Source of the DNA: Thermoproteota archaeon
GTDB lineage: Archaea > Korarchaeota > Korarchaeia > Korarchaeales > Korarchaeaceae
Direction of reading: 5' to 3'
Assembly: GCA_027491915.1 (NCBI GenBank)
Contig: JAOZGC010000002.1
Location: 256,001 to 320,000, forward strand
DNA: 64,000 bases
The position numbers were made by a program, and so were the translations under genes. Shown here in pieces: positions 37,162-42,529 of the stretch (within the stretch, counting starts at the first letter, position 1; the number at the start of each line of letters is the position of its first letter). The notes under the pieces are model-generated. The model made no database searches. It was not told where the DNA came from and saw nothing but the letters and a program-made list of their open reading frames with translations.

Positions 37162-38364
37162 TTGTCTGATGAGGGCCGTCCGAGGACCGTCAGGGACATC
37201 CTCCTCGAGATGAAGGACGCCTCGGAGACGGCGGTCAGCCTATCCTACGCGGCCCTCATGTTCAGCGACGAGGAGATAGCAGAAGAGGTGCTCGAGCTGG
37301 AGAACAGACTCGACGAGCTCAGGTACGAACTATCCGTCAGGACCATCCTGGCCGGGAGGACCCTGGAAGACGCTAGGGAGCTGGCCGCCGTGCTGGAGAT
37401 AGGGAGCGCCGCGGACGAGATAAGCGACGCGGTCGGCGACCTGGCGAAGCTCGTGAAGAGGGGGTACCCCCTCCACCCCTCGCTGCTGGAGGCCTTCTGG
37501 GAATCAGACGAGGTTCAGGGGATAGTCAAGGTCGTGGACGGCTCTCCGCTGGCCGGGATGAGAATCTCCGACCTCAGGGATCCCAGCGCGCTGGCCGGGT
37601 GCGATCTCCTGGGGATCAAGAGGGGCGGGAGGTGGATCTTCAACCCCCCGGAGGACGGGAGCCTGAGGCCCGGTGACGTGCTCCTCTTGGAGGGAACCAG
37701 GGAGGGGCTGATGGCCGTCAAGGGACTCTCGGGTAGGTCCGGACCAGTCCAGACAGTCCCCCCCCAGCGGGGGGCCGGGGAGGCCGCGAGGTTGGTGGAA
37801 CTGATAAAGGCCCTCAAGTCCCTCTCCGAGCTCATGGTCTACCTGGCGTACGCGGCCATCCTGCTGAACAACCAGGGCATGGCCTACGAGATATCGAAGC
37901 TGGAGGACGAGGTGGACGACCTGCACGAGATCTTCCAGGGGGAGGTCCTCTCCAGCCTGGTCGGTAGGGCGGAGATAAGGGAGATAATAGGGCTGCTGAG
38001 GGCCGGATCTTCGGCGGAGAGGATCGGGGACGCGGCCAACAGGATGGCGTCCGTGGTAGAGAGGGGCATCCCCACCCACCCCGTGCTGGCGGACGTCGTA
38101 GAGAGGAGCGGGGAGACCATAGTCAGGCTGGAGATACCCGAGGGGAGTCCGGCCGCAGACCGGCCCATAGGAGAGCTCAACCTAGAGGAATCGACCGGCA
38201 TGGAGGTTCTGGCTATAAAGAGGGGGATCAGGTGGATATACGATCCCAAGGACTCCGTCAGGCTGAGGGCGGGAGACGTGGTCCTGTTGCTGGGGTCTCC
38301 CTATGGGGAGAGGGCGGCCGAGGAGGTCCTGGGTATCGGGAGGAGAGGAGGTCGATCCGATTGA
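37162..38364 (+). CDS. Tandem PhoU + TrkA-C (RCK_C) domain protein
   Basis: Duplicated MKD.SE..LSYAA..LE..D / IKRG.RWI..P repeat. Confidence 0.88.
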   Translation: MSDEGRPRTVRDILLEMKDASETAVSLSYAALMFSDEEIAEEVLELENRLDELRYELSVRTILAGRTLEDARELAAVLEIGSAADEISDAVGDLAKLVKRGYPLHPSLLEAFWESDEVQGIVKVVDGSPLAGMRISDLRDPSALAGCDLLGIKRGGRWIFNPPEDGSLRPGDVLLLEGTREGLMAVKGLSGRSGPVQTVPPQRGAGEAARLVELIKALKSLSELMVYLAYAAILLNNQGMAYEISKLEDEVDDLHEIFQGEVLSSLVGRAEIREIIGLLRAGSSAERIGDAANRMASVVERGIPTHPVLADVVERSGETIVRLEIPEGSPAADRPIGELNLEESTGMEVLAIKRGIRWIYDPKDSVRLRAGDVVLLLGSPYGERAAEEVLGIGRRGGRSD

Positions 38365-39803
38365 CCGAGCTGAGGCTGACCGCCCCCCTGTCCTGGCTAG
38401 ACGGGGTGGACCCGAGGACCGGCAGGATAACCCAACCCGATCACCCCCAGAGGGGAGAGTCCATAGCCGGCCGGATCCTGAGGCTGCCCGGCTCCGTCGG
38501 GTCGACCGTGGGGGCCTACACCTTCTTCAAGCTGAGGAGGATGGGGACGGCCCCCTCGGCCATAGTGCTGGAGAGGCCGGACAGCATAACGGTGAGCGCC
38601 GAGATGGCCGGGATACCGGTCAAGGTGCTCGGAGCCCAGACCAATCCCGAACTGGACCTGGAGGGGGTCCCCGATCGTGTCAGGCGCTTCCTCGAGAGGG
38701 AGGCCTCCGCCTCCGGCGCGGAGGAATTCGCCCGGGTTCGCTCCGTCCACATATCCGGGATATCCTACTGGACAATAGGCGAGGCCGGACTGGACTTCCT
38801 GGAGGGGATGGCGCGGGAGGCCAGCTTCAGGGTCCCGGCCACCCTGAACCCAGCTGGCATGGACCTCTCCCGATGGGCGGACATGGGGGTTCCTGAGGGG
38901 TTCGCCGAGAGGCAGCTCAGGATAGTGGAGGCGCTGGTGAGGATGGGCGCGATACCGACGCTCACCTGCACCCCTTACCTGGCAGGGAACCTCCCTAGGT
39001 TCGGCGAGCACGTCTGCTGGGGCGAGTCCAGCGCGGTCGCCTTCGCCAACAGCGTCTTGGGCGCCCGGACCAACAGGGAGGGTGGGGTGAAGGCCGTGGC
39101 GGCCGCGGTGGCCGGGGTTACCCCCCTCTACGGCCTCCACCTGAGGGAGAACAGGTCGCCAGACCTCGAGGTGGAGGCGACTGCCCGGGTCTCCGGGAGA
39201 ACTAGGTTCTCAGAGCTGGGATACCTGGTGGGATCCCTTAGCCCCAGCGCCGTCCCGGTCTACAGGGGACTGGGATCTCCCTCCGCGGACGAGCTCAAGT
39301 CCCTCGGCGCCGGAGGGGCGGCCTCGGGGGGGATATCCATCTTCCACGTCCCGGGGGTGACGCCCGAGTCGCCTCGGCCCCGGGAGGGGGCGGACCGGGT
39401 GACGGTCGTTGACGACGATCTGGACGACGTCGAGGAGAGCCTGTCTACGACCGGATCTGAGCCGGACCTGGTCGCTATCGGCTGCCCCCACCTCTCGCCC
39501 CTGGAGATCCTCGAGGTGGCCACCCTCCTTGAGGGGAGGCGGGCGGCCGTCCCCTTCTGGCTGTTCACCTCCAGGGCCGCGCGGGCCCAGCTCCCTAATT
39601 GGGTGGAGCCCGCGCTCAGGAGGGCCGGGGCTGACCTGTTCGTGGACACCTGCATGGTGGTCGCCCCCCTGAGGGAGGCCGGCCACCGGGTCGTGGCCAC
39701 GGACTCGGCCAAGGCGGCCAAGTACCTGCGGACGCTCGGCGGACTGGAAGTCGTGCTGGCCCCCCTCGATAGGCTGATCTCCGAGTACACCTCACCCGCC
39801 TGA
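38361..39803 (+). CDS. Aconitase X, swivel + catalytic domains fused (probable phosphomevalonate dehydratase)
   Basis: TTG 38361. GVDPRTG..HPQRGESIAG..GSTVG, then HISG, TLNP, TCTPY, WGESSA, GCPH, DTCMVVAP, DSAK. Confidence 0.88.
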   Translation: MTELRLTAPLSWLDGVDPRTGRITQPDHPQRGESIAGRILRLPGSVGSTVGAYTFFKLRRMGTAPSAIVLERPDSITVSAEMAGIPVKVLGAQTNPELDLEGVPDRVRRFLEREASASGAEEFARVRSVHISGISYWTIGEAGLDFLEGMAREASFRVPATLNPAGMDLSRWADMGVPEGFAERQLRIVEALVRMGAIPTLTCTPYLAGNLPRFGEHVCWGESSAVAFANSVLGARTNREGGVKAVAAAVAGVTPLYGLHLRENRSPDLEVEATARVSGRTRFSELGYLVGSLSPSAVPVYRGLGSPSADELKSLGAGGAASGGISIFHVPGVTPESPRPREGADRVTVVDDDLDDVEESLSTTGSEPDLVAIGCPHLSPLEILEVATLLEGRRAAVPFWLFTSRAARAQLPNWVEPALRRAGADLFVDTCMVVAPLREAGHRVVATDSAKAAKYLRTLGGLEVVLAPLDRLISEYTSPA

Positions 39804-39805
39804 TC

Positions 39806-41089
39806 TCAGATTCCGAGGACCTGGGCGTACCCCTCAAGGTCGAGCAGCCCGTGTCCAGAGTAGTTGAACACTATGACCCTCTCCTCACCCTCCTCTTTGG
39901 CCCTCAGGGCCTCGTCTATGGCCGCCTTAACGGCGTGCGACGTCTCGGGGGCCGGTATTAAGCCCTCAGTCTCGGCGAACAGCCTGGCCGCCCGGAACAC
40001 CTCGTCCTGCGGGTAGGCCACCGACTCCACCACCCCCTTGGCCTTCAGCAGGGAGACCGTCGGCGCAGCCCCGTGGTACCTCAGCCCCCCGGCGTGTATC
40101 GGGGGTGGGACGAAGTCCGATCCCAGGGTGAACATCTTCAACAGGGGGGTGGTCTTGGCCGAGTCCCCGAAGTCGTACCTGTACTCCCCCCCGGTCATGG
40201 ACGGACAGGCCTCGGGCTCCGCCGCCAAGAACCTGACCCCCCTCATCTCCCCCCTCAACACCTTCCCCACGGCCGGGAAGGTGAAACCGGCGAAGTTGCT
40301 CCCTCCCCCGACGCACCCTATCATGACGTCCGGCTTCTCGCCCACCTCCTCCAGCTGGGCCAGCACCTCCTGGCCTATGACCGTCTGGTGCAGGAGGACG
40401 TGGTTGAGCACGCTTCCCAGGGCATATTTCGTCGATTCCCTGGTCACCGCCGCCTCGACCGCCTCGCTTATCGCTATCCCCAGGGATCCGGGGTGGTTTG
40501 GGTCCTCCTCCAGGAATCTCCTCCCAACGCGAGTCAGTTCGCTCGGCGACGGGACGACCTCCGCCCCGTAGAGCCTCATGACGTACTTCCTGTAGGGCTT
40601 CTGCTGATAGGAGACCCTGACCATGAAAACCAGCACCCTCCTGTCCGTCATCGCCCCCGCGTAGGACAGGGCGGATCCCCACTGCCCGGCGCCCGTCTCC
40701 GTCGTCAGGGTCTCGGTCCCCTCCTCGGCCGCGTAGTAGGCCTGGGCCAGGGCGGTGTTGAGCTTGTGGCTCCCGGTCGGCGTCACGTCCTCCCTCTTGT
40801 AGTAGATCCTGGCGGGGGTCTTGAGGTACCTCTCGAGCCTCTCGGCGCGGTAGAGCGGGGTGGGCCTCCCTATCCTCTCGTACATCTCCCTGACCTCTTC
40901 CGGGATCTCCACCCACCTCTCCCTAGAGAACTCCTGCCTTACGCACTCCCTGGCGAAGAGGGGTTCGAGATCCACCTCCCTCACCGGCTCTCCGGTCTCG
41001 GGATTCTTCATGGGCGGGAGATCGGGCAGGTCGGCCAGGATGTTGTACCACCGCCTCGGGATGGCGCTCACGTCCAGATCGATCCTCAA
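39806..41089 (-). CDS. trpB2: Tryptophan synthase beta chain 2
   Basis: [55 protein letters not shown]. Confidence 0.97.
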
Positions 41090-41589
41090 TCCGACTCACC
41101 TCCTCCAACACCAACCAGATCCGATATGCGGACCCTCACGTCCGGGGGATCGAAGTCCAGCACGTGCCTGGTGGTCTTCGGGGGGAACAGCTCCCCCCTG
41201 GCGGACCTCCTCAGCACCTCCCCCCTCGACACCGGGATCTCGCTGCGTCTCGGGTACAGCTCCAGCCTCTCCGACTCGTAAGGTATGAGCACCGCCGGTA
41301 TGAGCCTGGCCCCCATGGATCTCAGCGCGGCCAGCCTGTGATGTCCGTCGAGGACGGTTCCGGTGCTCCTCTCAACCAGTATCGGCCTGAACAGAACCCC
41401 GTCCTCCGCTATGCTCTCCCTCAACTTCTCCAGCCTGTCGATCGAGATCATCTCGTGGGGCCGCAGGAGATCCGCGTCGACGAAGGAGACGGAGATCCCA
41501 TCTCCGAGGTCGATCCTCCGGGGGAGAGGGTACCCGGATCCCACCCTCCGGGGGAAGACCGCCTCACGGGGAGAACCAAAGTAAACCAC
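41086..41589 (-). CDS. ParB/sulfiredoxin-fold protein, short SerK (free serine kinase)-like
   Basis: RPHE, VLDGHHR and C-terminal [12 protein letters not shown]; stop overlaps the trpB2 TTG start. Confidence 0.78.
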
Positions 41590-41836
41590 CCATGCCTGAT
41601 CCCTCCCCCCTCCCGTGCGTCCGCGCTGGGCGGGGGGCCCGCCCACCCATATAATCTTATCGGCCCACGCCCCCAGATTCGGGCCCTAATTTTAACAGAT
41701 CGACCCGATCTCTCCTCTGGGATAGCAGGGACGCCCGGTCGGGGACGATCTGGGATAATCCACTCGATCCCTCTGATACCGACCGAAACCGGGGCCACCC
41801 ATCGACGCTTTTTATCGCCCCCCCCGAGGGATCGAG

Positions 41837-42529
41837 GTGCCCGCGCCCAAGAGGCTGCTCAGGGAGATGGAGGCTCACCTGGTCGAGCTGATGGTGGGTG
41901 ACCCGAGCGGGCTCCCAGGGGACCTCTCCGACTACCTGTCCTCGGTGGGGGCCCTGAGGGGGGGAAGGTTAGATCCGGTCAGAACCGCGCTGGCGTGCGT
42001 CGAGGTCGGGATGCCCCCCGAGAGGGCCGCCGCCATGCTGGATTGGAGGGGGTTCGAATCTTTCGTGGCCGAGACCATGGCCGAGATCGGGCTCGCATCC
42101 TTCAGGGGGGTCTCTTTCTCCCTCGGGGCGAGGAGGTGGCAGGTGGACGTGCTGGCCGGGAGGCCGGGGATGACCCTGTCCGTGGAGGTCAAGATGTGGT
42201 CCCGCCGGCCCGCGATGTCCGGTCTCAGGGCGGCCGTCAGGACCCACTCCGAGAGGACGAGGGAGCTGGCCCTGGCCATGCCCTCCCTCCGGACGAGGCT
42301 CCCCGTGGTGGAGAGGCCCTCTCACGTCGTGCCCGTGGTTGTCACCTGGTTCTCCCCGGAGGAGATCATCGACGGAGTCCCGCTGGTGCCGCTCCGCTCG
42401 CTGTCGTCGTTCCTCTCGGAGGTAGACTCCATGCCAGACTCGGTCGTCGGGTTCCCCTCCCAAGCCTCTCTGTCCCCCTCCCCCCTCCCCGACAGCAGCT
42501 CCCTGGCCCCCCTGGAGAAGGTCAGGTAG
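41837..42529 (+). CDS. PD-(D/E)XK nuclease (NERD/Mrr-like)
   Basis: WRGFESFVA...QVDVLA...VEVKMW. Confidence 0.72.
   Translation: MPAPKRLLREMEAHLVELMVGDPSGLPGDLSDYLSSVGALRGGRLDPVRTALACVEVGMPPERAAAMLDWRGFESFVAETMAEIGLASFRGVSFSLGARRWQVDVLAGRPGMTLSVEVKMWSRRPAMSGLRAAVRTHSERTRELALAMPSLRTRLPVVERPSHVVPVVVTWFSPEEIIDGVPLVPLRSLSSFLSEVDSMPDSVVGFPSQASLSPSPLPDSSSLAPLEKVR

Follow-up and report, generated by a model that had tools for sequence, protein, structure and literature searches.

A stretch of 64,000 nucleotides from a Thermoproteota archaeon of the Korarchaeota (contig JAOZGC010000002.1, positions 256,001 to 320,000, hereafter the window) encodes a small protein related to the free serine kinase SerK, directly upstream of TrpB2. 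With a probability that we put at roughly 60%, this protein is a minimal serine kinase that feeds O-phosphoserine to TrpB2 for indole salvage. The upstream gene would encode a free L-serine kinase of the SerK/SbnI kind, reduced to the core and the C-terminal PKTTRH strand. The short protein would phosphorylate free serine to O-phospho-L-serine and would be active without the middle domain of its relatives; the phosphate donor may be ATP, ADP, or another nucleoside triphosphate (NTP). TrpB2 would be made from the same transcript via a TTGA stop/start overlap and would join phosphoserine and scavenged indole to form tryptophan, in an organism that has no further gene of the tryptophan pathway. 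In this scheme, TrpB2 presumably prefers phosphoserine and the indole presumably comes from outside the cell.

The homology of the short protein to SerK is far above chance. In a phmmer search against the PDB, the best matches are 1vk1 (P. furiosus PF0380; E 5.6e-20) and 5x0b (the free serine kinase of T. kodakarensis; E 1.8e-19), and SbnI comes next (E 1.9e-6). The alignment to SerK falls into two stretches, residues 16-114 and 204-241, which leaves about 95 central SerK residues without a counterpart. The three motifs of SerK are retained (residue numbers refer to the 167-amino acid form; all lie on the minus strand). PHE (P44-H45-E46; 41452..41460) places its Glu at SerK Glu30. DGHHR (residues 81-85; 41335..41349), as read in the sequence, is identical in SerK. 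PKTTRH (residues 137-142; 41164..41181) aligns to PKTTRH in the 204-241 stretch of SerK. The Glu of PHE is the residue named in the PDB entry titles of the E30A and E30Q mutants of SerK; the wild-type chain carries PHE, and chains 5x0j and 5x0k carry PHQ at the aligned position. DGHHR is invariant in 20/20 aligned short family sequences, as are P98, Y104, P136-P137-K138-T139-T140, and H142, and H45 and E46 are nearly invariant. All of the invariant residues of the short family (HE, DGHHR, and PPKTT.H) are identical in SerK.

The short protein is predicted to have a fold with a ParB/Srx-like core whose nearest solved structure is SerK. An AlphaFold2 model built from 20 homologues reached a predicted local distance difference test (pLDDT) score of 86.5 and a predicted template modelling (pTM) score of 0.81. 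Its best Foldseek matches are SerK/PF0380 (TMq 0.69-0.70). VIA-align gives Z 19.6 for 1vk1 and 18.3 for 5x0e, with 128-131 residues aligned at a root-mean-square deviation of 1.7-2.2, and Z 13.9-17.2 for SbnI. An earlier note on this DNA had called the gene SerK-like and lacking the central SerK insert, and the sequence and fold matches, the three motifs, and the roughly 95 residues unaligned to SerK structures confirm both points. It is highly improbable that the protein is a ParB-like DNA-binding protein or nuclease with no relation to the function of TrpB2. Such a role could draw on a Pfam ParB_N match that narrowly misses its cut-off (24 bits vs 26.3) and on a nuclease activity once reported for PF0380, according to the available text of PMC5120207. 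However, 167 amino acids are too few for a helix-turn-helix or dimerisation domain, and the canonical ParB family TIGR00180 scores 17.7 bits against a cut-off of 58.45. ParB, Noc, and sulfiredoxin (Srx) structures align at Z <=7.9, compared with 18-20 for SerK, and the metabolic gene context of the short gene recurs across phyla.

The downstream gene encodes a full-length TrpB2, as the earlier note had it, and passes both TrpB2 family cut-offs (NF009057, 697.3 bits vs 366; TIGR01415, 684 vs 518.85). It matches the PDB chains 6hul_B, 6hte_B, and 4qys_B with E values of 1e-142 to 1e-157, and its TTG start agrees with the N-termini of homologues. The GSHK sequence of the lysine region that binds pyridoxal 5'-phosphate (PLP), formed by G106, S107, H108, and K109, is invariant in 27 TrpB2 sequences. 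TrpB2 enzymes have been cited as O-phospho-L-serine dependent (Busch 2014, as quoted in the available part of PMC11917138).

The genome of the window is 1.12 Mb in 4 contigs and is 91% complete. No TrpA match at the family cut-off is present anywhere in it, which extends to the whole genome the earlier statement that no trpA lies nearby. TrpB1, IGPS, and anthranilate synthase component I (Chorismate_bind), as well as CysK/M and SepRS, gave either no match over cut-off or none at all in the genome. The sole PGDH-like gene scores as a glyoxylate reductase (NCBIfam, 560 bits vs cut-off 455), and a clear SerA was not found in the 91% that is covered. The SerB-like gene is a HAD-IB phosphatase below cut-off, the sole further enzyme of the PALP (fold-type-II PLP) family is a threonine synthase adjoining homoserine kinase, and the serA/serC-like gene pair of some genomes of genus g4 has no counterpart here. 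Given these absences, TrpB2 would be the only evident user of phosphoserine in this genome, and the SerK-like protein its only evident source. TrpA was found in 1/24 family members and TrpB2 in 22/24. The available text of PMC1854888 discusses the lone trpB2 of P. horikoshii, whose setting is similar.

The pair is not unique to this genome, as the adjacency seen in the earlier note recurs both in the phylum and at loci outside it. The phylum is represented in the collection by 43 genomes, 37 of which encode TrpB2. In 14 of these 37, trpB2 is immediately preceded by a short SerK-like gene in the same orientation. The pair occurs in 1/1 genomes of genus g1, 5/5 of g2, both g3 genomes that have TrpB2 (2/2), 4/4 of g5, 1/1 of g6, and 1/1 of g7. 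A start/stop overlap of the form xTGA is available in 13 of the 19 distinct junctions between kinase and trpB2.

Across the wider family, short SerK-like genes are strongly associated with phosphoserine-using PLP enzymes. The pooled loci hold 78 distinct sequences, that is, 77 short forms and one full-length SerK, with neighbours counted within 400 base pairs (bp). A PALP enzyme gene lies within this distance of 43/77 distinct short members. TrpB2 is the neighbour of 22 distinct short forms, a CysK/M-type enzyme of 9, a divergent CysK of the A. pernix O-phosphoserine sulfhydrylase (OPSS) type of 8, an SbnA-like enzyme of 4, and SufS of 4, and no partner was detected for 30; these rows contain close relatives and are hence non-independent. 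Among the loci with none detected, L083, L090, and L117 have a PALP gene, by Pfam, at a distance of one gene. The CysK/M partners score at or near the NCBIfam cysKM cut-off, and the divergent CysK type is closest to the A. pernix O-phosphoserine sulfhydrylase (1wkv, 219 bits). An SbnA-like gene immediately follows the short gene in two genomes of Xenorhabdus, one of Halovibrio, and one metagenome contig; the Xenorhabdus and Halovibrio partners are nearest to SbnA, at about 300 bits vs 350 (NCBIfam). The product of SerK itself is used by a phosphoserine-using CysK, according to the available text of PMC5120207.

The kinases also group by partner in a maximum-likelihood tree. The TrpB2 label requires 3 changes over 22 rows, and 0/500 shuffles were as low. 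Three genomes (G009, G012, and G016) each carry two paralogues, one TrpB2-linked and one linked to CysK/M, and these belong to separate clades. Natural fusions join the kinase to CysK/M (P0081 and P0082) and to an OPSS-like enzyme (P0089). In the model of the fused kinase::CysK P0082 (pLDDT 88.5, pTM 0.68), the domain placement is not confident and carries no information on an interface. L069 had been considered as another fusion and was dropped, as a stop separates its two open reading frames (ORFs).

The OPSS-like enzymes carry an N-terminal extension of 150 residues that is a degenerate SerK-like domain (hhalign 96.8%, E 3e-10, 127 columns) and has lost PHE, DGHHR, and PKTTRH alike. It is found at L057:2490-2951 on the plus strand and in the PALP genes of L055, L068, and L075, which are divergent beside short genes. 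Residues 2-76 of the solved A. pernix OPSS align to the kinase model with a middling VIA-align Z of 6.3-6.6. Tentatively, the short kinases might be partner-dedicated subunits that dock on their own PLP enzyme (TrpB2, CysK/M, OPSS, or SbnA). The enzyme would then replace the missing lid domain and receive phosphoserine directly, with no free pool needed. Under this arrangement, the fusions, the partner-specific paralogues, and the degenerate N-terminal domain of OPSS-like enzymes would be traces of physical coupling.

A number of observations weigh against a minimal serine kinase supplying TrpB2, and they concern the protein itself, the genomes that do without the pair, and the loci that have no PLP enzyme. 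The short protein is without a whole domain of the solved SerK enzymes. The central SerK domain (residues ~107-203) is absent from it and unaligned, and only about 130 residues align across chain residues 13..242. The NCBIfam SerK family NF053625 (ADP-dependent L-serine kinase, a 244-position model) matches in two stretches, positions 16-98 and a C-terminal stretch, for 74.7 bits against a cut-off of 380. The SbnI family NF033589 likewise reaches 31.8 bits vs 350 over the N-terminal 70 residues only. In addition, a published screen found an archaeal SerK-like protein to bind CTP and not ATP (available text of PMC12704722), and tryptophanase-type lyases, as a source of indole, were not found in the genome of the window.

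The absence of the middle domain of SerK and SbnI would also suit a protein that makes no phosphoserine at all, namely a non-catalytic, nucleotide-binding regulatory or scaffold subunit of fold-type-II PLP enzymes that binds its partner and tunes it by nucleotide state. The CTP binding in that screen fits such a subunit, as do the many relatives whose TrpB2 has no short protein. The degenerate, motif-less copy at the N-terminus (150 residues) of OPSS-like enzymes points the same way, as the fold is thus able to play a structural role there. Nevertheless, the catalytic Glu, DGHHR, and PKTTRH are nearly always retained in free-standing proteins and are lost exactly where the domain is merely structural, and the SbnA-like and OPSS-type partners need a source of phosphoserine. 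We regard a purely regulatory role as unlikely.

Within the phylum, TrpB2 has no adjacent partner in 23 of the 37 genomes that encode it. All 21 genomes of genus g4 have TrpB2 and none has the kinase beside it (0/21; ten loci read directly), and the partner is likewise absent in G029 and G030. In G004, a g5 genome, a decayed SerK-like copy that reads LNKHHR and has neither PHE nor PKTT stands beside an intact TrpB2. The kinase is thus dispensable, because 21/21 g4 genomes keep TrpB2 without it and one genome holds a decayed copy; the pairing is accessory and not a requirement of TrpB2. The earlier proposal of a dedicated two-gene indole-salvage route therefore stands only in part. The conserved, coupled pair and the association with phosphoserine enzymes are in its favor, and the 23 partner-free genomes and the decayed copy in G004 speak against it.

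The pair and a serA/serC-like gene pair do not show complementary distributions. The distribution of serC-like aminotransferases is not complementary to that of the pair: g5 and g7 have both a serC-like gene and the pair, and 13 g4 genomes have neither a serC-like aminotransferase nor a TrpB2-linked kinase. Among these 13, G019, G042, and G051 have either a CysK-linked copy or a PGDH-like gene. A short 2-hydroxyacid dehydrogenase of the PGDH family is present in 38/43 genomes of the phylum and is non-discriminating.

Two further observations were made in the phylum. In G006, a genome that is 93% complete and has no short kinase, a TrpB2 remnant with four in-frame stops lies at G006:C14:16764-17216; the remnant and the kinase absence may reflect co-loss. 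In G029 (G029:C16:1579-4875) and G030 (G030:C3:21374-24704), a longer SerK-like ORF (frames of 373-401 amino acids) forms a cluster with genes for a class-V aminotransferase and a PGDH-like protein. This SerK/class-V aminotransferase/PGDH-like arrangement is as in Desulfurococcales, according to the available text of Makino 2016 (PMC5120207).

In the pooled loci, 34/77 short members lack a PALP gene at 400 bp or less (the 30 with no partner detected and the 4 beside SufS), and other contexts and fusions exist, with a PhoU-AbrB regulator, 4HBT and PCMT, a GalU-like transferase, and gamma-carbonic-anhydrase-like proteins. The protein could accordingly be an active kinase whose substrate is a different small hydroxy-amino acid or metabolite, or could work mainly in the catabolic or reverse direction, its link to TrpB2 being one of shared regulation only. 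The contexts free of PLP enzymes (the GalU-like fusions, the NTP-transferase/aminotransferase fusion with a methyltransferase, and the PhoU-type regulator with glutamine synthetase) would be at home in such an account. Yet the TrpB2-linked members form clades of their own in which the start/stop overlap with trpB2 is kept, and phosphoserine is the documented substrate common to the three best-represented partner types, which makes this account improbable.

Several of these contexts recur. One clade of short genes stands beside a regulator with PhoU and AbrB/MazE domains and no PLP enzyme (L079, L085, L087, L099, L101, L124, and L130), and glutamine synthetase is also present in L079, L087, and L124. 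At L103, L105, and L122, the short gene is beside an NTP-transferase/aminotransferase fusion and a methyltransferase. P0194 and P0211 are fusions of a short SerK-like domain with a GalU-like nucleotidyltransferase. The GalU-like fusions and the NTP-transferase loci hint at nucleotidylation of a phospho-amino acid. In Fraserbacteria/Acetothermia metagenome-assembled genomes (MAGs) and related contigs (L071, L076, L078, L092, and L102), the short gene is upstream of a PCMT methyltransferase; it is preceded by a 4HBT thioesterase in L071, L076, L078, and L092 and by an RNA methyltransferase in L102. At L054, L070, L084, L109, and L115, it is divergent from a SufS-type cysteine desulfurase, and a second, weaker SerK-like ORF follows SufS in L054 and L070.

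The short family is defined here as proteins of 120-190 amino acids with xHE, DGHHR, and PPKTT.H and with 54-59 residues from the D of DGHH to the P of PKTT, and the protein of the window fits this definition. A word-indexed search returned 80 homologues, mostly of 110-190 amino acids, from archaeal MAGs. Almost all are without a name, and one carries the source label 'L-serine kinase (ADP)'. DGHH and PKTT are 54-59 residues apart in 58 of the 80 and 56 apart in the window protein; longer spacings are those of insert-bearing forms. When 1.84 billion cluster representatives were searched with a profile, 7421 matched at E <= 0.001, 1867 at <= 1e-10, and 328 at <= 1e-30. Among the best 150 profile matches of the list, 130 are no longer than 200 amino acids, 149 keep xHE, 132 keep DGHHR, and 105 show P-x-K-[ST]-[ST]-[RKQH] by a rough regular expression. 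With a degenerate DNA pattern of one fixed motif spacing, which recovers only about half of the family members, 31 loci were detected in species genomes and another 47 in contigs from metagenomes. Clear SerK homologues are confined to Thermococcales and Desulfurococcales in the available text of Makino 2016 (PMC5120207), where tryptophan is not mentioned. The short family is much wider than the range given there for SerK.

Outside the phylum, the order of the pair can be reversed, with TrpB2 before the kinase, as in two MAGs, one from Micrarchaeota (L059) and one from Bacillota (L072), and in the metagenome contigs L095 and L120; the L095 kinase sequence is the same as that of L072. An Rfam scan of these four loci returned no match and no T-box. 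Six longer proteins of 333-649 amino acids (P0085-P0088, P0090, and P0091) hold two stretches each that match the short-family profile, and the remainder has no NCBIfam family at E <= 1e-15.

In the window, the ORF listing gives the SerK-like frame as 41086..41646 on the minus strand, 186 amino acids counted from GTG 41646, and trpB2 as 39806..41089 on the minus strand, 427 amino acids from a TTG start. The SerK-like gene is taken as 41086..41589 (minus strand), 167 amino acids from GTG 41589. This GTG is preceded by a purine-rich, GGAGG-type run at 41600..41612 (minus strand), which may serve in its translation. GTG 41544 is a further in-frame alternative and would give 152 amino acids. GTG 41646 was dropped as a start, as it directly abuts a TATA-like box, AGATTATAT, read upstream of the pair at 41656-41649 on the minus strand. 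The TATA-like GATTATAT (41649..41656, minus strand) is a candidate promoter of the pair, proposed from its sequence and position. At 41086-41089, tcaa on the plus strand corresponds to TTGA on the minus strand, and two bases are therefore common to the TTG of trpB2 and the TGA of the SerK-like gene, in agreement with the coupled arrangement described earlier.

A convergent AcnX gene and a divergent, weakly Hjc-like gene flank the pair. The AcnX protein (38232-39803, plus strand; 523 amino acids) combines the swivel and catalytic domains in a single chain, and its gene ends 2 bp from trpB2, with which it is convergent. On the other side, 41837-42529 (plus strand) encodes a protein of 230 amino acids with only a weak match to an Hjc-type nuclease (19.6 bits). 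N-termini that resemble this protein recur in ORFs upstream of trpB2 at g4 loci, with no kinase between. This synteny suggests that the kinase was gained or lost at the spot between the Hjc-like gene and trpB2.

Among known proteins, SerK (TK0378; 5x0b) and PF0380 (1vk1) share with the window protein the ParB/Srx-like core and PHE, DGHHR, and PKTTRH. They differ in that SerK has the central part (~107-203) that is absent here, and the partner is TrpB2 in the window and CysK for SerK. In Staphylococcus, SbnI and SbnA of the staphyloferrin B pathway combine a free serine kinase with an adjacent PLP enzyme that uses phosphoserine. The window pair is thus like SbnI in that a SerK-type kinase gene adjoins the gene of a PALP-family enzyme using the kinase product, whereas SbnI has 254 amino acids, an extra C-terminal part, and, per its NCBIfam name, a regulatory role. 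The A. pernix OPSS (CysO; 1wkv, 6l0q) represents the type of partner found with 8 short kinases and in one fusion. It uses sulfide as the nucleophile, not indole, and enzymes of the OPSS type have a degenerate SerK-like N-terminal domain of their own, which TrpB2 does not. The TrpB2 of the window is a full-length member of the stand-alone, O-phospho-L-serine-dependent type represented by 4qys, and its genome is without other trp genes; the difference is its conserved partner gene, none having been reported for TrpB2 before.

A preference of TrpB2 enzymes for O-phosphoserine was shown ten years ago, but to our knowledge, no dedicated phosphoserine source for TrpB2 has been described. The earlier note knew of no description of the pairing, and a literature search, with subscription journals and supplements outside its scope, turned up none either. 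According to the available text of Merkl 2007 (PMC1854888), the neighborhood of trpB2 is not conserved besides trp operons. GapMind 2026 proposed DUF1015 serine kinases and, in the available text, does not mention TrpB or ParB.

The conserved, coupled mini kinase offers a testable answer to how TrpB2 is supplied with phosphoserine. If true, it would account for the retention of a solitary trpB2 in organisms whose tryptophan pathway is otherwise entirely gone. Free serine kinases would no longer be limited to a few Thermococcales, Desulfurococcales, and staphylococci but would include a large family, for the most part unannotated, in archaea and bacteria, and the short protein may be the smallest working form of the SerK kinase fold. 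The findings suggest a general rule in which a SerK-type kinase adjoins a phosphoserine-using PLP enzyme, and this rule would span tryptophan, cysteine, and diaminopropionate-type chemistry.

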